Counted from the first letter of the stretch, positions 28,255-53,073 are shown. The stretch is 64,000 nt of DNA from Spirochaetia bacterium (GCA_965198005.1 CBDAOI010000002.1:576001-640000); one strand, 5' to 3'. The notes: generated by a model from the letters alone, not told the origin. Program-made: numbers and translations.

Positions 28255-28362
28255 ATACGACACGCGTCAAGTCTACCACAAGTGGCAAGGGTACCACAAG
28301 TGGGAAATCTACCACAAGTGGCACGTCTATGACAAGTGCCGAATATACCACCAGCGGCAGGT
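28255..28362. repeat. 18-bp degenerate tandem repeat (CTACCACAAGTGGCAnnn) x~6
   Basis: Directly visible; core CCAC-AA-GTGG is palindromic. Confidence 0.85.
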
Positions 28363-28417
28363 CGTGTCCAGGGCGTCCGCCCGGCCCTGCGCCGGGCCGC
28401 GGACGGGAGGCGGGCGG

Positions 28418-28844: not shown

Positions 28845-30062
28845 ATGGGTGCCGAATTCAGCCTTTCCATATATCCGTGGGTGTACGTCAGCAAGTTCGA
28901 CGACGGCTCATGGTACCACGACTTCATCGAGAAGCGCCACCTGTCGCCGGCGGCGGAAGCGGCGCTGCCCGACGCGGACCGGGAACAACTATACCGCGAA
29001 CGCAACCAGTTTGCAAGCCTCCCGCTGGTGACGTATTCCACGCAGTACGCGATGGCGTGCTTCGAGGGGCTCAAGGCGTTTCCGCAGCCGGACGGATCGC
29101 TCAAGCTGTTCCGCCCGCACGAGAACGGACTGCGAATGAAACGGTCGATGGAAGGGCTGTACATGCCTGGTGTTCCCGTTGACCTGTTCGTGGACGCGGT
29201 GCGCGGCGTCGTGGCCCGCAACCAGGCAATCGGCTTCGCGCCGGAGTACGATCCGGCCTGGGAGCGGGACGAGTTCGAGTCCGGGCACTCGGTGTACGTC
29301 CGACCCTTCTCATACGCCGAAGCGGGGATCGGCGTCAACCTGTGCGAGGCACCCTATTTCATTGTGGTGAGCACGCGCGTGGGCGCCTACTTCGGCGCCG
29401 GCGATTCCTCGCCCACGGTGACCACCCGCCGCATCCGCGCCACGCCCGGCGGCACCGGCTGGATCAAGTGCTGCGCCAACTACGTCACCAGCGCGCTGGC
29501 CAAGCGGGAGGCGGAGCAGGGCGGCTACCTCGAGTGCGTGTTCCTCGACGCCCGCCACCAGCGCTACCTTGAGGAGGGTTCCTCCTGCAACCTGTTCTTC
29601 GTGCTGTCCGACGGCCGGCTGGTCACGCCCGAGCTGGGCGACACGGTGCTGGCCGGGATCACGCGCCGCACGGTGATCGAGCTGGCCGCCGAGCGCGGCA
29701 TCCCGGTCGAGGAGCGCGCGGTGGCGATCGAGGAGGTGCTGGACGACGCGGTGGAGGCGTTCGGCACCGGCACCGCGGCCGGGGTCACCTACTTCAGCTC
29801 GATCCGGCACGGGGAGCGCGAGCAGGTGTTCGGCGACGGCGCCATCGGGCCGGTGGCGCACGCCTTCCGCAGCCGGCTCAAGGGGGTGCAGTACGGAGCG
29901 CTGGAGGACCGCTACGGGTGGATGGTGCCGGTGGCGGCGGGAGGGGATGACGCGGGGGACGCTGCCGGAGCGGCGGCCGCGGCGGTGGCGGCGGAGGGCG
30001 TGGCGGCGGCCGAGGGCGCCGCGGACGGGAGTGCGGCGCTGGCCGGCACGGCGCGCGGCTGA
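28845..30062 (+). CDS. ilvE: branched-chain amino acid aminotransferase
   Basis: YAMACFEGLKAF, LFRPHEN, IKCCANY (PLP Lys), EEGSSCNLF, LAGITR, GTGTAAGV. Confidence 0.93.
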   Translation: MGAEFSLSIYPWVYVSKFDDGSWYHDFIEKRHLSPAAEAALPDADREQLYRERNQFASLPLVTYSTQYAMACFEGLKAFPQPDGSLKLFRPHENGLRMKRSMEGLYMPGVPVDLFVDAVRGVVARNQAIGFAPEYDPAWERDEFESGHSVYVRPFSYAEAGIGVNLCEAPYFIVVSTRVGAYFGAGDSSPTVTTRRIRATPGGTGWIKCCANYVTSALAKREAEQGGYLECVFLDARHQRYLEEGSSCNLFFVLSDGRLVTPELGDTVLAGITRRTVIELAAERGIPVEERAVAIEEVLDDAVEAFGTGTAAGVTYFSSIRHGEREQVFGDGAIGPVAHAFRSRLKGVQYGALEDRYGWMVPVAAGGDDAGDAAGAAAAAVAAEGVAAAEGAADGSAALAGTARG

Positions 30063-30355
30063 GCGGACTGCCTCAGAACGGCACTCCGAACACGAGGAAG
30101 CCGGAGTACGCCCGGGTGCCGGCGCCCAATGCCGGCGCCGCCCGCTCACCCGCACCGATCGAGAAGCGGTCCTGACGATACGTGCCACCCAGGCCTGCCC
30201 GAATCGCGTTCTCAGCCAACTTCGACGTCAGCGTCTCTCCCGGATACACGGGACGACCGTCTGCGCGCCGCTGAACGTTCGCTCTACGTCCGGAGCACCA
30301 CGCAGCGAGACCTCCCCGCCACCCACGGGAAGCGTGCTCTCCGGCTGCAACCCGA
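30063..30355. repeat. ~290-bp post-ilvE segment, repeated at 32075-32366 and split at 33489-33545 / 34486-34520
   Basis: Direct sequence similarity between the copies. Confidence 0.9.
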
Positions 30356-30356
30356 T

Positions 30357-30508
30357 GTAGTCGTGAGCGTTGTAGCCGCGCCAACTGCCCAGCTCGGCGT
30401 CGGTGAGCAGGCGCCCGCGGTACCCCTGCTTCTCGACGTAGAACGCCAGCCGGCGGAAGAAGCGCGCCTGCACCGCGTAGCTCGCGGTGTCGAAGATCAG
30501 CACCGGCG
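30357..30508 (-). pseudogene. 152-bp displaced copy of the internal part (38423-38574) of the gene at 37841-39631
   Basis: Near-identical sequence (LIFDTASYAVQARFFRRLAFYVEKQGYRG..). Confidence 0.92.
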
Positions 30509-30599
30509 GGTGAAGGGCATCGGATCGCCATTCGATGCCACGCCGGTGTACACCCTATTTCGAACACTATCTGACCCGTCGGCGCCATGTCGACCGTGC

Positions 30600-30753
30600 C
30601 GATCTTGCGACCGGCGAGGCCGAGGAGACCTACGTCGACCCCGCCAAGCAGCGTGGCGCCAAGAAGGGTGGCGAGGCGCGCGCCGCTACGCTCAACCCAG
30701 AGAAGCGGCAGCGGATCGCCAAGGACGCGGCCGCCAAGCGCTGGGAACAGTAG
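30600..30753 (+). pseudogene. small basic IS1-associated protein (C-terminal part)
   Basis: DLATGEAEETYVDPAKQRGAKKGGEARAATLNPEKRQRIAKDAAAKRWEQ. Confidence 0.7.
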
Positions 30754-30763
30754 GCCGGGTTGT

Positions 30764-31099
30764 TTACCTGTCTTCGCGATGGCCGCGGGCGAGCGTTTGC
30801 CTGATGAAGCGGGACGCGAAGCTCAGGAAGGGCAGCAAAGCCGATGCTCCGAAGGCGACGACGCCACCGCGCGGCAGGTCTAGCAGGAACCCTGTGAAGG
30901 CTGCCGCGATGAGGGCAAACGCCAATAGTCCGGCGATTATCTGCCCTCGCTCGGACTTCTTGATGTCGCTGGCGACGAGCAACTCATTCATCTTGCGGCT
31001 ATGCTCTTGCGCCTTGGTTGCCAGATCAAACGTCGTATGCGCGGACCAACTCCGGCGGCGGATACGGCCCTTGGTAGATCTCGATGCTCTGCCGGACAT
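30764..31099 (-). CDS. DUF2335-like membrane protein (cargo)
   Basis: AHTTFDLATKAQEHSRKM..SERGQIIAGLL plus two TM segments. Confidence 0.55.
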   Translation of the reverse strand: MSGRASRSTKGRIRRRSWSAHTTFDLATKAQEHSRKMNELLVASDIKKSERGQIIAGLLAFALIAAAFTGFLLDLPRGGVVAFGASALLPFLSFASRFIRQTLARGHREDR

Positions 31100-31156
31100 T
31101 AGGTTTGTCGGGTTGCTTCTCCTTACCCGGCGTGGCGTTCCGCTCTCGACGGTTGC

Positions 31157-31504
31157 TCACTTGCGTGGCGCGAGATGGCCTTTGGCCGCCACGCGATTAA
31201 AGGCGCGTCCGAAGTGCACAAAGGCGTCGGCGAAGTACCGTTCGATTTCCGCTTCCTGCTCCTCGATGGTCGGCGGACTGGCATCATAGTCACTGAGCAC
31301 GTCCAGGAAATCCACGGCGGTCGCCACGCCACCCCAAAAGGTCGGCCTCGTCAGAAGTCGTGGGCTTCCGTAGCAACACTGGTCTATCGGCTCGGCCTGA
31401 CGTAGTCGAATGGCCCGTTCGAGCCCAATAGGCCTGCGGCATTCCGCAGTATGGTGAGTGGCGCGCCGTTGCTTGGAAGCCTTGCGAACGGTGGGTACTA
31501 GCAT
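31157..31504 (-). CDS. hypothetical cargo protein
   Basis: RPTFWGGVATAVDFL..EAEIERYFADAF; directly upstream of the DUF2335-like gene; start uncertain. Confidence 0.5.
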   Translation of the reverse strand: MLVPTVRKASKQRRATHHTAECRRPIGLERAIRLRQAEPIDQCCYGSPRLLTRPTFWGGVATAVDFLDVLSDYDASPPTIEEQEAEIERYFADAFVHFGRAFNRVAAKGHLAPRK

Positions 31505-31609
31505 CGTAGTCATCCTCTCTATGTGCCAAGGTGCTATAAATGAAACCAAACTGCAGCGCATTCGTCAACCACCGGCATACTGCTGCCGCCGGGGAAGAGA
31601 AAACTGCCT

Positions 31610-32074
31610 CTGGCCAAGCGCGAGGCGGAGCAGGGCGGCTACCTCGAGTGCGTGTTCCTCGACGCCCGCCACCAGCGCTACCTCGAGGAGGGTTCCTCCT
31701 GCAACCTGTTCTTCGTGCTGTCCGACGGCCGGCTGGTCACGCCCGAGCTGGGCGACATGGTGCTGGCCGGGATCACGCGCCGCACGGTGATCGAGCTGGC
31801 CGTCGAGCGCGGCATCCCGGTCGAGGAGCGCGAGCAGGTGTTCGGCGACGGCGCCATCGGGCCGGTGGCGCACGCCTTCCGCAGCCGGCTCAAGGGGGTG
31901 CGGTACGGAGCGCTGGAGGACCGCTACGGCTGGATGGTGCCGGTGGCGGCGGCGGGGGATGGCGCGGGGGACGCTGCCGGAGCGGCGGCCGCGGCGGTGG
32001 CGGCGGAGGGTGTTGCGGCGGCCGAGGGCGCCGCGGCCGGGAGCGCGGCGCTGGCCGGCACGGCGCGCGGCTGA
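31610..32074 (+). pseudogene. ilvE: ilvE 3' copy 2 with 102-bp internal deletion
   Basis: Matches ilvE ~29496-30062; deletion between two GGAGCGCG sites. Confidence 0.92.
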
Positions 32075-32479
32075 GCGGGCTGCCTCAGAACGGCATTCCG
32101 AACATGAGGAAGCCGGAGTACGCCCGGGTGCCGGCGCCCAATTCCAGCGCCACCCGCTCACGCACACCGATCGAGAAGCGGTCCTGACGATACGTGCCAC
32201 CCAGACCTGCCCGAATCGCGTTGTCAGCCAACTTCCACGTCAGCGTCTCTCCCGGATATCGGGACGACCGTCTGCGCGCCGCTGAACGTTCGCTCTACGT
32301 CCGGAGCAGCACGCAACGAGACCTCCCCGCCACCCACGGGAAGCGTGCTCTCCGGCTGCAACCCGAGGTCGCCGACCAGGCGTTGGGCATCCCGAACCGA
32401 TGCGGCCGCCAGCACCGGCACGGTCGGCATGGCGCCGACGCTGTACGTCGCCAACAACAGCATCGGCAACGTGCCCACC

Positions 32480-32563
32480 GAGTATGATCGCTACGGCGTG
32501 GGCATGGTTCTCCAGCTTCTTCGAGAAGGCGTTGGTGAGGCGGGTGAAGCGCCTCGGCGACAT
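32480..32563 (-). mobile_element. IS1-family (ISMhu11-like) transposase remnant
   Basis: RRFTRLTNAFSKKLENHAHAVAI. Confidence 0.75.
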
Positions 32564-32590
32564 AGATAGATAGAATAGATAGATAAGGAA

Positions 32591-32623
32591 GGCCGCCAGG
32601 GAGATGCTTTTTCCCCGGCGGCC
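32591..32623. other. GC-rich hairpin just upstream of the unusual tRNA
   Basis: GGCCGCCAGGGA...TCCCCGGCGGCC inverted repeat. Confidence 0.6.
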
Positions 32624-32639
32624 TGCATGTGACGCATCG

Positions 32640-32737
32640 GGCGGGTTGGCAGAGAGGCCGAATGCAGCCGGTTGAGGGCCGGTAGCTTAGGGTGCTCACA
32701 CCACCTTAGGCCGTGGGTTCGAATCCCACACCCGCCG
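32640..32737 (+). tRNA. atypical tRNA: anticodon GAG (Leu) on a Ser-type body with a 10-bp variable stem
   Basis: Acceptor GGCGGGT/ACCCGCC; D arm GCAGAGAGGCCGAATGC; anticodon arm GCCGG-TTGAGGG-CCGGT; V arm GCTTAGGGTG/CACCTTAGGC; T arm GTGGG-TTCGAAT-CCCAC; discriminator G. Confidence 0.85.
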
Positions 32738-32985
32738 TACCGCCGCCTACGTCACTAGTGCCATAATTCAGGGTGCCAGCGCAAGCTAGCTCGGAGTGGT
32801 GGAGTGGTGCCCCAGCGGGCGGCGGCGCCTATCCGGCCGATCTCCCGCCGGCGCTCCGGGGTCAGGTCTCTTGGGTAGGGTGGGCATCATGCTCCTCCTG
32901 GGACGCCATAATAAGTAGCGGCGACCGATCATGTCCGCAGTATACCGCGTGCCATTAACCTTTACAAGCAGTGCAAGCCGTGGTA

Positions 32986-33488
32986 CGGAGTACGATCCGG
33001 CCTGGAGCGGGACGAGTTCGAGTCCGGGCACTCGGTGTACGTCCGACCCTCACGCCCGAGCTGGGCGACACGGTGCTGGCCGGGATCACGCGCCGCACGG
33101 TGATCGAGTTGGCCGCCGAGCGCGGCATCCGGTCGAGGAGCGCGCGGTGGCGATCAAGGAGGTGCTGGACGACGCGGTGGAGGCGTTCGGCACCGGCACC
33201 GCGGCCGGGGTCACCTACTTCAGCTCGATCCGGCACGGTGAGCGCGAGCAGGTGTTCGGCGACGGCGCCATCGGGCCGGTGGCGCACGCCTTCCGCAGCC
33301 GGCTCAAGGGGGTGCAGTACGGAGCGCTGGAGGACCGCTACGGCTGGATGGTGCCGGTGGCGGCGGCGGCGGACGGCGCGGGGGACGCTGCCGGAGCGGC
33401 GGCCGCGGCGGTGGCGGCGGAGGGCGTGGCGGCAGCCGAGGGCGCCGCGGACGGGAGCACGGCGCTGGCCGGCACGGCGCGCGGCTGA
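32986..33488 (+). pseudogene. ilvE: ilvE copy 3 with internal deletion
   Basis: Joins ilvE ~29243-29308 to ~29624-30062. Confidence 0.92.
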
Positions 33489-33688
33489 GCGGACTGCCTC
33501 AGAACGGCACTCCGAACATGAGGAAGCCGGAGTACGCCCGGGGTGCATTCTTTCTGTGTGGTAGCGCACTAGCGGTGCCACCGGCATCGAGCATGGCAGC
33601 GAGCGCGGCCAGGCGCAGCCGGTTAGCGCAGCCGGCGATTGGCGTTGACATCGAAGATGCCGCACGGATACGTTCGCCGGCGGGTCTC

Positions 33689-34345
33689 ATGGCCGACGAG
33701 CGGGCAGCAGAGCAACCGGACACCGACGAGCCGGGGCAGGCGATCAGTCAGCCGCACGACAAGTACTTCCAGCGCGTGTTCTCGAACGAGCAGGACGCCG
33801 CCAGCCTGCTGCGCACCTGCGTGCCGCGCCCGCTCGCCGACACGCTGAAGTGGTCGACGCTCGCCCTGCTGCGCGGTCGCTTCGTGGCTGACGACTGGCG
33901 GCGCAACGAGACCGATCTGCTGTATTCGGTGGAGCGGGAGGGTACGGAGACGCCGGTGCTGGTGTACGTGCTGCTGGAGCATCAGTCGACGCCGGACCAG
34001 TGGCTGCGGCTGCGACTGCTGGGTTTGCGGACTTGGTAACGGCCGCGGCGCCACAGTGGCGGTGGGTGCCGAGGTTTGAGCATCCGCTGATCGACCAGAC
34101 GGAGCTGGGCGCGCGAATCGGTGACGGGCGCGGTAGCGGCGCGGGTGTTGCAGATCGCGATGATGGCGACGTTTCGGGAAGCGCCGGAGGAGTTGCTGGA
34201 ATGGGTGACGCGGTTGATTGGGGAGTTGTACCGCGCCAAGGGGTTCGAGGAAGTGGCGAAACACGTGGAGTACGTGCTGGCGACGCAGCCGGAGGCACAG
34301 CGGAAGCTGTTTGCGGAGGCGTTGCGGAGGAACGTGCCGGGCCAC
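33689..34345 (+). pseudogene. Rpn/YhgA-like PD-(D/E)XK recombination-promoting nuclease, internally deleted
   Basis: QPHDKYFQRVFS..ETDLLYSV..VYVLLEHQSTPDQWLRLRLL. Confidence 0.85.
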
Positions 34346-34728
34346 GGGAATCGACGAGGCCACATTCCGGCGCCTCAGGCAGCGAATCGACGCAAAGGAC
34401 AACGGGGCGGATTCGACCGTCTGAGGCCGCCGCAGCAACCTCGACGGCCGCCTGCACGCCGCTACCACACTGAGGAATGCACCCGACCCACGGGAAGCGT
34501 GCTCTCCGGCTGCAACCCGAGGTCGCCGACCAGGCGATGGGCATCCTGAACCGATGCGGCCGCCAGCACCGGGACGGTCGGCATGGCGCCGACGCTGTAC
34601 GTCGCCAACAACAGCATCGGCAACGTGCCCACCGGGTGTTCGTCTTCACGGAGAAGAACGTCCGACAAACCCGACACAATCGCTTCAGCATGGTTTCCTC
34701 AGTTAGTGGGGGGGCAGTATGCTACCGC

Positions 34729-35517
34729 ATGGCTCTCAACGTGAGCGCAGCCGCGATGAACCCGCCTGGCACGATACACACCGGACCGCTCGGCTCCACC
34801 GTGCACGTGCTGCGCGCCGATTCCGAGACCGTCGCCGAGTTGGCCGCCATCGACTGGAGCCTGCGCTTCCGCCGCGTCTGGCTCGACCCGATGCGAGGGA
34901 TCATTGCTCTGACGTCGCCGTCTCACTCCCACGAGGATCTGTCCACGATCCTCGACAACATCGTGGACATTGCGGCGAGTATTCTCGCCGGCGCGACGAA
35001 AGGGTTGCGCAGCACGCGGCTGCGGCGGCGGGATGACCCCCCGGGCACGGGAATGGAGCCCGACTGCGCGTTCTATGTCGGCGCGCGTGCCAGGGACTTC
35101 CGTGCTGCTATGGTCGAAGGTACGGCCGCGGCCGAGGCCTTCATCGAACGTACCGCGCCCGATCTGGTGATCGAAGTCGAGATCACCAACGCCGATGAAG
35201 GTAAGATCGAACGCTATGCCGAGTTGGGGGTGCGAGAGCTGTGGCGCCTGCACGGCCGCAAGGAGTCGTGGGAGTTGCGTGCCGATTTTCTCGCCCTCCA
35301 CGCCAACGCTGCGCCGCGCGAGCTTGACGCTTCGGAAGTCGTCCCGGGGCTCACCCCGGGCGATGTGTGCGAAGCGGTCGACGGGGTGCGCGCCGGTGTG
35401 ACCCACGACGAGCGGACGCAAGCGGTCGCCCGCATCGTGCACCGGCGCCAGTCGCCCAGCGTGCGGGTGCGTGAGGAGGAGGAGGTCCGGTACCTCGCGC
35501 GTTCGGCCGCACCGTAG
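34729..35517 (+). CDS. Uma2-family endonuclease
   Basis: SPSHSHE, MEPDCAFYVG, APDLVIEVEIT, KIERYAELGVRELW. Confidence 0.85.
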   Translation: MALNVSAAAMNPPGTIHTGPLGSTVHVLRADSETVAELAAIDWSLRFRRVWLDPMRGIIALTSPSHSHEDLSTILDNIVDIAASILAGATKGLRSTRLRRRDDPPGTGMEPDCAFYVGARARDFRAAMVEGTAAAEAFIERTAPDLVIEVEITNADEGKIERYAELGVRELWRLHGRKESWELRADFLALHANAAPRELDASEVVPGLTPGDVCEAVDGVRAGVTHDERTQAVARIVHRRQSPSVRVREEEEVRYLARSAAP

Positions 35518-35601
35518 AACGCGCGGCGAGGCAGTTGGGCCGGGTACACGGCGGCGTCGGCACCGAGGAAATGGGGACCCCGCTGGGCGGCGGCCGCAAG
35601 G

Positions 35602-35990
35602 TCACCGCATCGGCCAGTCATCCTCGGTCCACCGGCGATCAGTGACGCCCACGGCCTGCGCCGGCGTCATCTTCAGCTGTAGCCACGGTGCGCCGCGCCC
35701 GTCGCTCCTGAATCGCCACCGTATACCTTGATCAGCATCGCGTAATCCACGTCGCCGCCGAAGGCGCCGCGCACGGCCGTCAGGTAGGCGCGGTGCCCGT
35801 CCGTGGTCAACTGCACGCGATTCCGAAGGCGGCTCGCCAGATCCTTCATGAACGGGATCGCGGATGCGGCCGAGCGGTCGCCGATGAACCAGGAGGGAAC
35901 CAGCTTGGTGTCGGCGCATATGGCCGTCCAGGTCCACACGTCGCCGGCCTCCGGCGGCGCGCTCTTGGAGCGCGCTACTTGCAACGCTAG
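35602..35990 (-). mobile_element. IS1-family (ISMhu11-like) transposase remnant
   Basis: GDVWTWTAICADTKLVPSW..QLTTDGHRAY..VDYAMLIKVYG; LKMTPAQAVGVTDRRWT. Confidence 0.85.
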
Positions 35991-36001
35991 TAGGGCGCCG
36001 C

Positions 36002-36259
36002 TTATAGGAGCTTGAGCCCGCCAACGATTACCAGCGCAACGACCAGCGAAGTGCCTATCGCCCAACGCAGGGACGACACCTGCTTCTCGGCAATCAAGGT
36101 CTTGATGGACTCGATGTCGGCCTTTGTGGCTACGTTCTTGGAAAGGTTGTTTACCCGTTCCTCTAGCCGTACCAGCCTCGCCTCGAACCCGCCACCACCG
36201 TTTCCCGCCCCCGATCCGGTGCTGGCACCCGGAAAGTCTATAGGCTGAGGGCTTCCCAC
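36002..36259 (-). CDS. small coiled-coil protein with C-terminal TM (cargo)
   Basis: FEARLVRLEE..ATKADIE..LRWAIGTSLVV. Confidence 0.65.
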   Translation of the reverse strand: MGSPQPIDFPGASTGSGAGNGGGGFEARLVRLEERVNNLSKNVATKADIESIKTLIAEKQVSSLRWAIGTSLVVALVIVGGLKLL

Positions 36260-36504
36260 GACCTGAGCTTCTCCCAGATGTTCTGAGCGGCGTAGCCGTG
36301 GTATCCCCCAACCTTCACGACCACTCCTGTGCGCTGGTCCGCGCCTATACGATAAGCTGTTGCTATTTCAGTTGACGTGGGCGCGACACCTTCCCCTAAG
36401 GCCAAGCAGGTGGTGTTCGCAACTGCGACATGATCATGGACCCCCGGCGGTGGTTCCGAAGGGACGGGGTCGCCATCTGTATATGCCACCATGAATACTT
36501 CCAT
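36238..36504 (-). CDS. hypothetical cargo protein
   Basis: 88-aa low-GC ORF ending GYHGYAAQNIWEKL; overlaps the next gene. Confidence 0.6.
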   Translation of the reverse strand: MEVFMVAYTDGDPVPSEPPPGVHDHVAVANTTCLALGEGVAPTSTEIATAYRIGADQRTGVVVKVGGYHGYAAQNIWEKLRSWEALSL

Positions 36505-36724
36505 AGTCCGTGTCTCTACTATATATCAGACCAACGCACCGGTCCACGTCTATGCGTTGCTTTGGCGAGCATTAACGTGCAACGACGCCCTCCCTTGAAA
36601 AAGCTATGGCCACCGGAGGGTGGGGCCATAGGGTCTGCCGCCCAACACATGGGTCGGCAATTGAGGATTTCTATGAAGAATATGGGAACAGATCGCCCGG
36701 ATGTCGAGGGGGCGTCACGGCGGC

Positions 36725-37378
36725 CTGGTCACGTATTCCACGCAGTACGCAATGCCGTGCTTCGAGGGGCTCAAGGCGTTTCCGCAGCCGGACGGATCGC
36801 TCAAGCTGCTCCGCCCGCACCTCATACGCCGAAGCGGGGATCGGCGTCAACCTGTGCCAGGCGCCTTATTTCATTGCACCAGCGCTACGTCGAGGAGGGT
36901 TCCTCCTGCAACCTGTTCTTCGCTGTCCGACGGCCGGCTGGTCACGCCCGAGCTGGGCGACACGGTGCTGGCCGGGATCACGCGCCGCACGGTGATCGAG
37001 CTGGCCGCCGAGCGCGGCATCCCGGTCGAGGAGCGCGCGGTGGCGATCGAGGAAGTGCTGGACGACGCGGTGGAGGCGTTCGGCACCGGCACCGCGGCCG
37101 GCGTCACCTACTTCAGCTCGATCCGGCACGGTGAGCGCGAGCGGGTGTTCGGCGACGGCGCCATCGGGCCGGTCGCGCACGCCTTCCGCAGCAGGCTGAA
37201 AGGGATGCAGTACGGAGCGCTGGAGAACCGCTACGGGTGGATGGTGCCGGTGGTGACGGGGGGGGTACAGGGGGGTGATGCGAGGGGCCCGGCCGCGGCG
37301 GTGGCGGCGGAGGGCCTTGCGGCGGCCGAGGGCGCCGCGGCCGGGAGCGCGGCGCTGGCCGGTGCGGCGCGCGGCTCA
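36725..37378 (+). pseudogene. ilvE: ilvE copy 4, more diverged, with two internal deletions
   Basis: Pieces of ilvE ~29025-29120, ~29308-29364 and ~29557-30062; stop changed TGA to TCA. Confidence 0.92.
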
Positions 37379-37640
37379 GCCATCGCCACGTAGCGCCAGG
37401 AGCCCTCGTTTCTGTAGTCCCTCTACTACGCCAACCGCTATCTCCTTCGCCAACCCGCCATTCGCCATGTGCCCGAACGTCTCGCGGACCCACCGCCCGT
37501 GGGTCTCAAGATCCTGCGTCAGGGCCGTCATGTCGCCCTTCAGAGCCGTCATGTCACCCTTCAGAGCCGTCATGTCGCCCTTCAATTCATGGCCTCAACT
37601 CGCCGCAGCACTCGCCCTGAAACTCGCCCTCACTCACCCT
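37376..37640 (-). pseudogene. coiled-coil protein with (MTALKGD)3 heptad repeat; paralog of 20958-21480
   Basis: 21-bp repeats at ~37524-37584; LTQDLETHGRWVRE..LAKEIAVGVVEGL; AGGAGG RBS; 5' frameshift. Confidence 0.65.

Positions 37641-52991: not shown

Positions 52992-53073
<82 letters not shown>

Follow-up and report, generated by a model that had tools for sequence, protein, structure and literature searches.

A transfer RNA (tRNA) gene was found at 32640-32737 on the plus strand of a 64,000-nt stretch of DNA (hereafter the window) from a Spirochaetia bacterium (GCA_965198005.1, CBDAOI010000002.1:576001-640000). It is an intact class II tRNA of 98 nt with a canonical 7/5 cloverleaf. It has the acceptor stem, D arm, core, variable-arm geometry, T arm and discriminator of a bacterial tRNA-Ser and the anticodon loop of tRNA-Leu(GAG). 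We estimate at roughly 55% the probability that this gene encodes a serine-accepting decoder of the codons CUC and CUU, an acquired extra that is kept at low or conditional activity. The window tRNA appears to belong to a scattered family of canonical-fold Ser-type tRNAs with Leu anticodons and oversized variable arms.

The Rfam tRNA model covered 32640-32737 (plus strand) end to end with 49.5 bits (E 5.4e-09), the gathering score being 29, and the gene was recovered as one of 44 tRNAs in a whole-genome Rfam search. The two parts of the tRNA on which most of the discussion depends are the following:

32672-32678, plus strand: anticodon loop TTGAGGG, with the anticodon GAG at 32674-32676, which reads CUC/CUU, and G37.
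32684-32712, plus strand: variable region of 29 nt, with A44, a 10-bp stem (32685-32694 with 32702-32711), the loop at 32695-32701 and C48.

The acceptor stem (7/7), the T stem (5/5) and the anticodon stem (5/5) were fully paired. The D arm has a 3-bp stem with G13/A22 and C11:G24, and G15 and C48 are both present. Furthermore, T8, A14, G18G19 and A21 are canonical, and the T loop is TTCGAAT. The discriminator is G73 at 32737, and CCA is not encoded, as in the other tRNAs of the host; an eighth pair in the acceptor stem would have to join T and C. The 10-bp variable stem contains three G-T pairs and ends in the 7-nt apical loop CTCACAC, with one unpaired base on its 5' side and none between the stem and C48. 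The minimum-free-energy fold was the cloverleaf (-50 kcal/mol, z -3.96), and none of 200 shuffled sequences folded as well. The cloverleaf given in a preliminary description of this DNA, with its 7/5 stems, TT-GAG-GG loop, G73, G15:C48 and 10-bp variable stem, was thus in agreement with both the Rfam match and the sequence.

ARAGORN missed the 98-nt gene and called a tRNA-Val(cac) at 32665-32738 instead, because the variable-arm loop CTCACAC was mistaken for an anticodon loop. That loop matches the anticodon loop of the host tRNA-Val(CAC) at six of seven positions. The tRNA-Val(cac) was rejected, since its acceptor stem is poorly paired and the perfect 7-bp stem aligned by Rfam is ignored. In addition, the leader GTGACG (32629-32634) and the trailer CGTCAC (32750-32755) could form 6 bp and extend the acceptor helix of the precursor; this pairing may be due to chance in G+C-rich DNA.

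The identity of the tRNA was examined against the tRNA set of the host, which includes five ordinary tRNA-Leu (CAG, GAG, TAG, CAA and TAA) and four tRNA-Ser. All five tRNA-Leu have A73, C2-G71 and A15 with U48, and an extra base comes after their short variable stem. For the tRNA-Leu(TAG) at 52992-53073, with which the window tRNA had been compared in the preliminary description, A73, A15, U48 and a 4-bp variable stem were verified. All four tRNA-Ser have G73, G1-C72, G2-C71, C11:G24, G13/A22 and G15 with C48, which directly adjoins their variable stem. At each of these positions distinguishing the two isotypes, the window tRNA is in the Ser state. Moreover, its T arm and C48 are letter-identical to those of the host tRNA-Ser, and the layout of its variable arm (one free base on the 5' side, none before position 48) is the same in 36 tRNA-Ser of the host's order. 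A core of a 3-bp D stem, G13/A22, C11:G24 and G15:C48 was reportedly described by Asahara et al. as a hallmark of tRNA-Ser. The hallmarks of tRNA-Leu are missing: G73 is found in place of A73, which is present in all 25 aligned tRNA-Leu, and there is neither A15-U48 nor a D loop of the Leu type (G18G19 placement, A20a). The anticodon loop, on the other hand, agrees in all seven letters with that of the host tRNA-Leu(GAG), and the anticodon GAG with G37 differs from the Ser anticodon (NGA or GCU) with A37 of tRNA-Ser.

According to extracts of a previous study (PMC9976931), the determinants of seryl-tRNA synthetase (SerRS) are the long variable arm, G73, G1-C72, G2-C71 and G30-C40, and tRNA-Ser is recognised by its 'characteristic tertiary structure'; the determinants of leucyl-tRNA synthetase (LeuRS) are A73, A15-U48 and D-loop features. 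G30-C40 is also present in the window tRNA. The combination of serine identity elements with a leucine GAG anticodon, as had been proposed, therefore seems to hold, with the SerRS determinants all there and A73 and A15-U48 missing. Isotype covariance models were built from tRNAs of the host and its order (36 tRNA-Ser and 25 tRNA-Leu). The window tRNA obtained 67.1 bits with the Ser model and 35.5 bits with the Leu model, in the order that had been predicted. As controls, the host tRNA-Ser obtained 96.7-99.5 bits (Ser) and 27.7-41.4 bits (Leu), and the host tRNA-Leu(GAG) obtained 37.3 and 106.6 bits, respectively. As far as sequence can show, a serine-type body with a leucine-type anticodon loop is supported.

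The genuine tRNA-Leu(GAG) was found in 25 of 25 genomes searched, with 95-98% identity within the genus, which indicates that the window tRNA is an extra. By BLAST, the window tRNA was found at full length only in this genome among 61; in the other genomes just its T arm was matched, at tRNA-Ser clusters. Moreover, of 401 genomes that sample the phylum, this one alone contained the pattern of its D arm and anticodon stem with an NAG anticodon. The shares of CUC, CUU and CUG among the leucine codons of the host were 24%, 3% and 64%, respectively (412 long reading frames). CUC and CUU together make up 27% of the leucine codons and 2.8% of all codons, so the activity of the window tRNA must be low or conditional. 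The genome contains one intact SerRS gene, on G000:C4, with the N-terminal tRNA-arm-binding domain; no second gene with this SerRS N-domain was found in the genome, by a search that is blind to paralogues without that domain.

Once transcribed and processed, the window tRNA would be charged with serine by the host SerRS, because recognition by this enzyme depends on the long variable arm, G73 and G1-C72/G2-C71 and not on the anticodon. LeuRS would be expected to reject it because of G73 and the absence of A15-U48. G37 is probably methylated, and EF-Tu should deliver the tRNA like any Ser-tRNA, its T stem being equal to that of the host tRNA-Ser. Decoding of CUC/CUU in competition with the genuine tRNA-Leu(GAG) would then give Leu-to-Ser substitutions. 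Previous work indicated that tRNAs with engineered or extended variable-arm tips stay translationally active (PMC7590224). The gene is most simply seen as an acquired, presumably non-essential one in a rearranged spot rich in mobile elements, and a convergent antisense transcript, considered below, is a candidate brake on it.

A second Ser-type tRNA with a Leu anticodon was found in the same genome, outside the window, at G000:C4:2198550-2198642 on the minus strand (identical with L013:8551-8643), through hits of the D-arm/anticodon-stem/NAG pattern in the host genome. This sister tRNA, with the anticodon CAG, is 93 nt long and has G73, a Ser-type D arm and an 8-bp variable stem. It obtained 48 bits with Rfam, 61.3 bits with the Ser model and 35.7 bits with the Leu model. 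It contains a C31/A39 mismatch, and its T loop is TCCGAAT, with C at position 55. With the anticodons GAG and CAG, the two genes together address 91% of the leucine codons. A 1.4-kb spacer, with a DAO/GCV_T dehydrogenase gene on one side and a TauD-like gene on the other, contains the CAG sister, which has imperfect direct repeats of about 45-50 nt at its flanks. It had no full-length match in the 60 other genomes searched, and the sole outside hit for its locus was about 40 nt of the 5' flank in G015.

The wider distribution of such tRNAs was searched with a pattern made of the D arm and anticodon stem common to the window tRNA and the CAG sister. In genome and viral collections, at least 131 tRNAs were matched, at least 125 of them with Ser anticodons. 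Since Ser anticodons account for 125 of the 131 among the matches listed, the body is that of an ordinary tRNA-Ser of many phyla. The six non-Ser exceptions among the matches listed were CTA (three), TAT (one) and GCA (one) in viral contigs, and GTC (one) in a metagenome-assembled genome (MAG) of Gemmatimonadaceae. Among these, the amber-reading CTA was located in L141, L152 and L153, TAT in L140 and GCA in L155; the MAG tRNA (L090:5112-5205), with its aspartate anticodon GTC, has the same D loop as the CAG sister.

When the pattern was combined with an NAG anticodon and applied to metagenome contigs, 26 hits were obtained, of which 14 were 7/5 tRNAs and 12 were not tRNAs; the Leu-anticodon pattern gave no hit in viral contigs. 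The anticodons of the 14 metagenomic relatives were TAG (eight), GAG (five) and TAA (one); their limitation to the leucine boxes was imposed by the search pattern, and nothing can be read from it. Thirteen of the 14 obtained 32.7-58.5 bits with Rfam, and the remaining one, L170, fell below the Rfam E-value limit and was detected by ARAGORN and the Ser model. ARAGORN labelled eight of the 14 as tRNA-Leu and made no call for six. The closest family member to the window tRNA was L175, with 76% identity over 87 nt.

The 14 metagenomic relatives, the window tRNA, the CAG sister and the GTC tRNA of the MAG were aligned (n = 17). G73 was present in 16 of the 17, the variable regions ranged from 18 to 51 nt, and all 17 scored higher with the Ser model than with the Leu model. 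In this alignment, 97.9% of the cells were paired, and 18 of the 25 pairs showed changes on both sides. None of 500 shuffles reached this level, and only 37-51% of the cells were paired in the slid controls. The compensatory changes across the family indicate selection on the fold. The T loop TCCGAAT of the CAG sister was also observed in L170, L175 and L140. That four mis-wired Ser-type tRNAs which otherwise differ have C at position 55, where T is nearly universal, suggests a tolerated or selected variant rather than decay.

The motif CTCAC was found in six of the 17 family variable regions, compared with two of 98 canonical tRNA-Ser (Fisher p 1e-4), a count in which the motif was picked post hoc, the arms of the family are 1.7 times longer, and near-orthologues make up two of the six carriers. 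The carriers were the window tRNA (32695-32701), L164, L166, L169, L179 and L183; in the window tRNA and L164, the motif lies within a 7-nt apical loop resembling the anticodon loop of tRNA-Val(CAC). A hairpin upstream of the tRNA had a median z of -2.04 in the family versus -0.38 in 80 canonical tRNA-Ser (one-sided p 0.02), with no difference in raw energy, so that it is at best weakly indicated as a family trait.

No conserved partner gene was found across the 14 metagenomic loci. Among 20 neighbouring frames, six had a Pfam match and 14 had none, with no family recurring. A transposase was found in four of the 14 loci and was alone in recurring; an integrase was found in one and a DUF4145 protein in one. 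In the four loci, the transposase gene (SWIM and DDE_Tnp_1 domains) lies 275-400 nt downstream of the tRNA on the same strand. The idea that the tRNA is cargo of this insertion sequence was rejected, because another copy of the element in one contig lacks the tRNA. The sequence common to the copies also begins only past the tRNA 3' end, and both observations indicate that the transposase is a neighbour and not a carrier. No SWIM/DDE_Tnp_1 transposase was detected in the host genome by tblastn, and the flanks of the window tRNA did not match the flanks of any relative. Three diverged copies with the SWIM zinc finger and DDE_Tnp_1 are found in one 15-kb contig (L179:4600-12100), one of them directly downstream of the mis-wired tRNA. 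The element was also seen at L183:1-1710, and in L165 and L170 the tRNA likewise has related copies downstream of it. This recurrence downstream of mis-wired tRNAs may reflect a target preference.

The DNA and RNA data covering the locus were also analysed. Single 510-nt contigs from DNA runs of two studies, one of which may be the source of the assembly itself, cover 32524-33000 with 0 and 1 differences. The lone difference is at 32557, outside the tRNA, and the depth over the tRNA was the same as over the unique flanks. Since the contigs are unchanged within the tRNA, the GAG anticodon is no error, and the possibility raised earlier that reads would show a Ser anticodon is excluded. The elements relevant to transcription are the following:

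32615-32915, strand not given by the contigs: stretch covered by RNA-library contigs from two sponge metatranscriptome libraries of one study.
32908-32967, minus strand: two sigma-70-like promoter matches (TTGTAA-17-TATACT and CGGACA-18-TATTAT), pointing to the tRNA.
32786-32899, minus strand: AGGAGG box at 32899-32894, ATG at 32890, a 34-codon frame and TAG at 32788-32786, as read in the sequence.
32590-32624, no strand assigned: G+C-rich hairpin, 15 nt upstream of the tRNA, with 13-nt arms that are 92% complementary.

The two RNA-library contigs, of 295 nt (32615-32909) and 268 nt (32648-32915), showed zero differences and left 32578-32604 and 32929-33000 uncovered. The two minus-strand promoter matches, whose -10 boxes are at 32944-32939 and 32913-32908, compare with 0.2 expected in shuffles. 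A transcript from the region 32786-32899 (minus strand) would cross the tRNA in antisense up to the hairpin. Read from 32624 to 32590, the hairpin is followed by a T-rich tail on the minus strand, so it looks like a terminator there, and the terminator scan did not call it. The same scan called no plus-strand terminator at the window tRNA. The RNA over the locus is probably antisense to the tRNA. Mature tRNA is under-sampled by standard RNA-seq. In the preliminary description, a -10-like box TAGAAT and a hairpin had been placed upstream of the tRNA. The hairpin was confirmed, and the motif is indeed present at 32571-32576, where it lies inside an ATAG-type low-complexity run; its role as a promoter element found no support, as the promoter scan called nothing on the plus strand.

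Repeats of the anticodon arm were searched as another kind of antisense partner. No direct or inverted repeat beyond chance was found within 600 nt of the window tRNA (14/21, with a shuffle maximum of 14). Among the 17 family members, L158 alone has a candidate antisense stretch, of 21 nt, of which 17 are complementary to its anticodon arm (14 at most in shuffles); it is located about 70-90 nt downstream of the tRNA.

Several observations weigh against a serine-inserting decoder that is active in the cell. The promoter scan called no plus-strand promoter at the window tRNA. The RNA-library contigs show neither strand, ends nor transcription, and DNA carry-over is possible; their ends fit the minus-strand signals better, and the contigs may stem from something other than the tRNA. 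As both libraries belong to one study, the RNA cover is not taken as evidence of a discrete transcript. Leu-to-Ser decoding without restraint, at 2.8% of codons, is expected to be harmful, which argues for silence. On the Ser model, the window tRNA lies about 30 bits below a genuine host tRNA-Ser, a deficit due to the C3:G70 acceptor stem, the anticodon loop and the long variable arm. C3:G70 had already been noted as atypical for tRNA-Ser, and A3:U70 was indeed invariant in 36 of 36 tRNA-Ser of the relatives; the 10-bp variable stem also exceeds every one in these 36 tRNA-Ser. Moreover, the host tRNA-Tyr obtained 69.1 bits on the Ser model, only Ser and Leu models having been built, so that the Ser model partly measures class II architecture. 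Tyr identity, which needs A73 and U35 according to extracts of PMC9976931, is excluded for the window tRNA through identity elements only. As regards the family, the D stem and a portion of the anticodon stem were preset by the search pattern, and the sequences were aligned by fitting to the Ser model, so the uniformity is inflated; judged by its sequences, the family is a real but pre-selected group.

The gene might instead be a silent passenger, that is, an intact-looking but unexpressed tRNA gene recently arrived with mobile DNA, the RNA being functionless antisense read-through from the minus-strand promoter. This explanation is unlikely on balance and yet has to be taken seriously. It agrees with the lack of a called plus-strand promoter, with the high toxicity expected of an active product, with the rarity of the tRNA (1/61 related genomes by BLAST and 1/401 of the phylum by pattern) and with its place in a 505-bp orphan segment among gene fragments; the two minus-strand promoter-like sites, the AGGAGG-ATG start and the hairpin bracket the RNA-covered stretch exactly. 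All 27 stem pairs and all conserved tertiary positions being intact is unfavourable to it, as are the compensatory changes in the wider family, the second such gene in a different setting of the same genome and the identical sequence kept in DNA from two studies. In another reading, the minus-strand signals would be functional. The locus would then be a two-RNA module resembling a toxin-antitoxin system, in which a mis-decoding Ser-tRNA is the toxin and the convergent antisense transcript, with its own promoter, ribosome-binding site, short frame and terminator, spans the whole tRNA and keeps it unprocessed or degraded. The toxin would be freed once the antisense transcript falls away; with the CAG sister, such switches could corrupt 91% of the leucine codons, and the oversized arms with their recurrent, anticodon-like CUCAC loop might serve as a second control handle common to the family. 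This elaboration is a tentative one, and we consider it rather improbable.

It is about equally improbable that the gene yields a tRNA-like RNA that does not decode, made and perhaps charged, and acting as a decoy, a regulator or a handle, for example as a substrate or sponge for a tRNA-targeting enzyme or as an arm-loop scaffold for a partner. The variable regions of 18-51 nt far exceed the need of SerRS, and the enrichment of CTCAC (6/17 versus 2/98, with the reservations given above) and the likeness of the variable-arm loop to the tRNA-Val(CAC) anticodon loop (6/7) fit this view. In addition, extracts of a previous study state that many allo-tRNA-UAU species were inactive in translation and suggest links with transposons or toxin-antitoxin systems (Mukai 2017). 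However, all decoding features are kept in the window tRNA, namely U33, G37 after G36, a 7-nt loop, a 5-bp anticodon stem and a canonical T loop and stem, and no conserved partner gene was found, the transposase of 4/14 loci being a mere neighbour. For the toxin, anti-phage or decoy functions raised in the preliminary description, the analysis yielded evidence neither in favour nor against. Much less credible still is the idea that the tRNA truly accepts leucine and is an unusual tRNA-Leu isodecoder that LeuRS charges. It could be defended by the anticodon loop, letter-identical to that of the host tRNA-Leu(GAG), and by the ARAGORN label tRNA-Leu for 8/14 metagenomic relatives, which is given by the anticodon alone. 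Against this, G73 acts as an antideterminant towards LeuRS, the tRNA has neither A15-U48 nor the Leu-type D loop, G2-C71 replaces the C2-G71 of all host tRNA-Leu, and the Leu model gave 35.5 bits in comparison with 106.6 for the genuine tRNA-Leu(GAG). An artefact of assembly or sequencing, for instance a wrongly joined chimera or an erroneous anticodon base, would be conceivable in a region so rich in repeats and so mosaic, and it is made extremely improbable by the 510-nt DNA contigs of two studies that cross 32524-33000 with the tRNA unchanged and at the depth of the unique flanks, even if one run is possibly the source of the assembly.

The proposed serine-accepting decoder was compared with known systems. 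Extracts of a previous study (Mukai 2017, PMC5389517) describe allo-tRNAs in which Ser identity is combined with Leu anticodons, including 9/3 readers of UUA, UUG, CUA and CUG; the (8/4) allo-tRNA-GAG from Silvibacterium bohemicum inserted Ser at CUC in Escherichia coli and killed the cells on induction. The analogy with allo-tRNAs, in a canonical fold, that had been drawn in the preliminary description is therefore apt. The window tRNA shares with them the Ser identity elements, the long variable arm and the Leu anticodon (GAG), and possibly also the sporadic distribution and the proximity of transposons and other mobile genes (here an IS1 remnant, Transposase_31 and duplicated fragments). 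Unlike the allo-tRNAs, which have an 8/4 or 9/3 branch and Sec-like long D and anticodon stems, it is a 7/5 tRNA with a 3-bp D stem and a 5-bp anticodon stem; its 10-bp variable stem and the variable regions of its relatives (up to 51 nt) are longer, and it comes from another phylum than those reported in extracts of PMC7609411 (Clostridia, Proteobacteria and Acidobacteria).

In CTG-clade yeasts, a canonical-fold tRNA-Ser(CAG) with a Leu anticodon, the same as that of the CAG sister, decodes a CUN codon as Ser, and in Ascoidea asiatica a Ser tRNA competes with a Leu tRNA for the same codon, according to extracts of PMC6041473 and PMC11415595. As described there, the yeast tRNA is nuclear, is inherited within the lineage and goes together with a codon reassignment in which CUG usage is depleted. 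In contrast, the genes of this study are strain-specific, occur beside normal Leu tRNAs and address the commonest Leu codons (CUG 64%, CUC 24%). The tRNA-ProX (ProA/ProN/ProT) of Streptomyces and Kitasatospora likewise joins an isotype body with a foreign anticodon and represents encoded mistranslation, although with proline identity and Ala, Asn or Thr anticodons (extracts of PMC11415595). The present genome differs in that no second SerRS N-domain gene was found. tRNA-ProX is accompanied by a dedicated synthetase paralogue. Compared with canonical bacterial tRNA-Ser, the window tRNA is alike in geometry, determinants and the host-identical T arm, and differs in GAG with G37, C3:G70, the 10-bp variable stem and its absence from relatives.

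No description of bacterial 7/5 Ser-type tRNAs with Leu anticodons was found in the literature, and supplementary data (e.g. of Mukai 2017) may list some. The CAG sister and the 14 metagenomic relatives with Leu anticodons, variable regions of up to 51 nt and strong covariation are new here. Two cases of genetically encoded mistranslation are known in bacteria, the allo-tRNAs (8/4 or 9/3) and the proline-type tRNA-ProX. If the window tRNA is active, a new anticodon loop would suffice to turn an ordinary Ser tRNA into a proteome-wide Leu-to-Ser mistranslator, and such genes would circulate on mobile DNA in nature, two of them in this sponge-associated, high-GC bacterium. The locus would also be a compact case of how a cell tolerates or uses a toxic tRNA, and the 'tagged tRNA' designs of synthetic biology would have natural examples in the very long variable arms. 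Standard annotation hides these genes, as ARAGORN names the window tRNA tRNA-Val and relatives tRNA-Leu.

The surroundings of the tRNA contain the following features:

32481-32985, no strand assigned: single-copy segment of 505 bp holding the tRNA, between duplicated pieces of neighbouring genes, according to self and genome BLAST.
32489-32563, minus strand: remnant of an IS1 family transposase, followed by the ATAG-type low-complexity run to about 32587.
31610-32480, plus strand: duplicated block comprising the 3' part of a class IV aminotransferase gene, the spacer downstream of that gene and the initial 150 nt of a Uma2-like gene.
32986-33546, plus strand: another partial copy of the aminotransferase 3' end, from repeats, BLAST and Pfam.
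33535-34491, to the right of the tRNA: multi-copy Transposase_31 (YhgA-like) element.

The block at 31610-32480 consists of copies of 29496-30355 and 34486-34634. Within the IS1 remnant, 32498-32551 showed an 85% match to an annotated IS1 family transposase gene on a plasmid, and the metagenome contig depth of the IS1 piece was 25- to 70-fold higher than that of the flanks; no full IS1 copy was found in the host genome. The 505-bp segment had no match in the phage collection, and among plasmids the IS1 piece alone was matched. No toxin-antitoxin genes were identified, PADLOC not having been run. The tRNA had been placed between IS1-like remnants; this applies to the left side, whereas the right side is the Transposase_31 repeat without IS1. 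The label of mobile cargo is fair but loose, since the surroundings are a mosaic of duplications and mobile-element pieces without a defined element. By its sequence make-up, the spot is a rearrangement hot spot with mobile-element debris.

The full class IV aminotransferase gene lies at 28845-30062. Its 3' end occurs in four partial copies (29496-30101, 31610-32113, 32986-33546 and 36725-37420), with different DNA after each one; repeated entry of elements at the gene end, or recombination with it, would be expected to give this arrangement. No integrase was found near these copies (28845-37420). Five 18-nt units in tandem (TACCACAAGTGGCA-like) were observed at 28256-28363, upstream of this gene.

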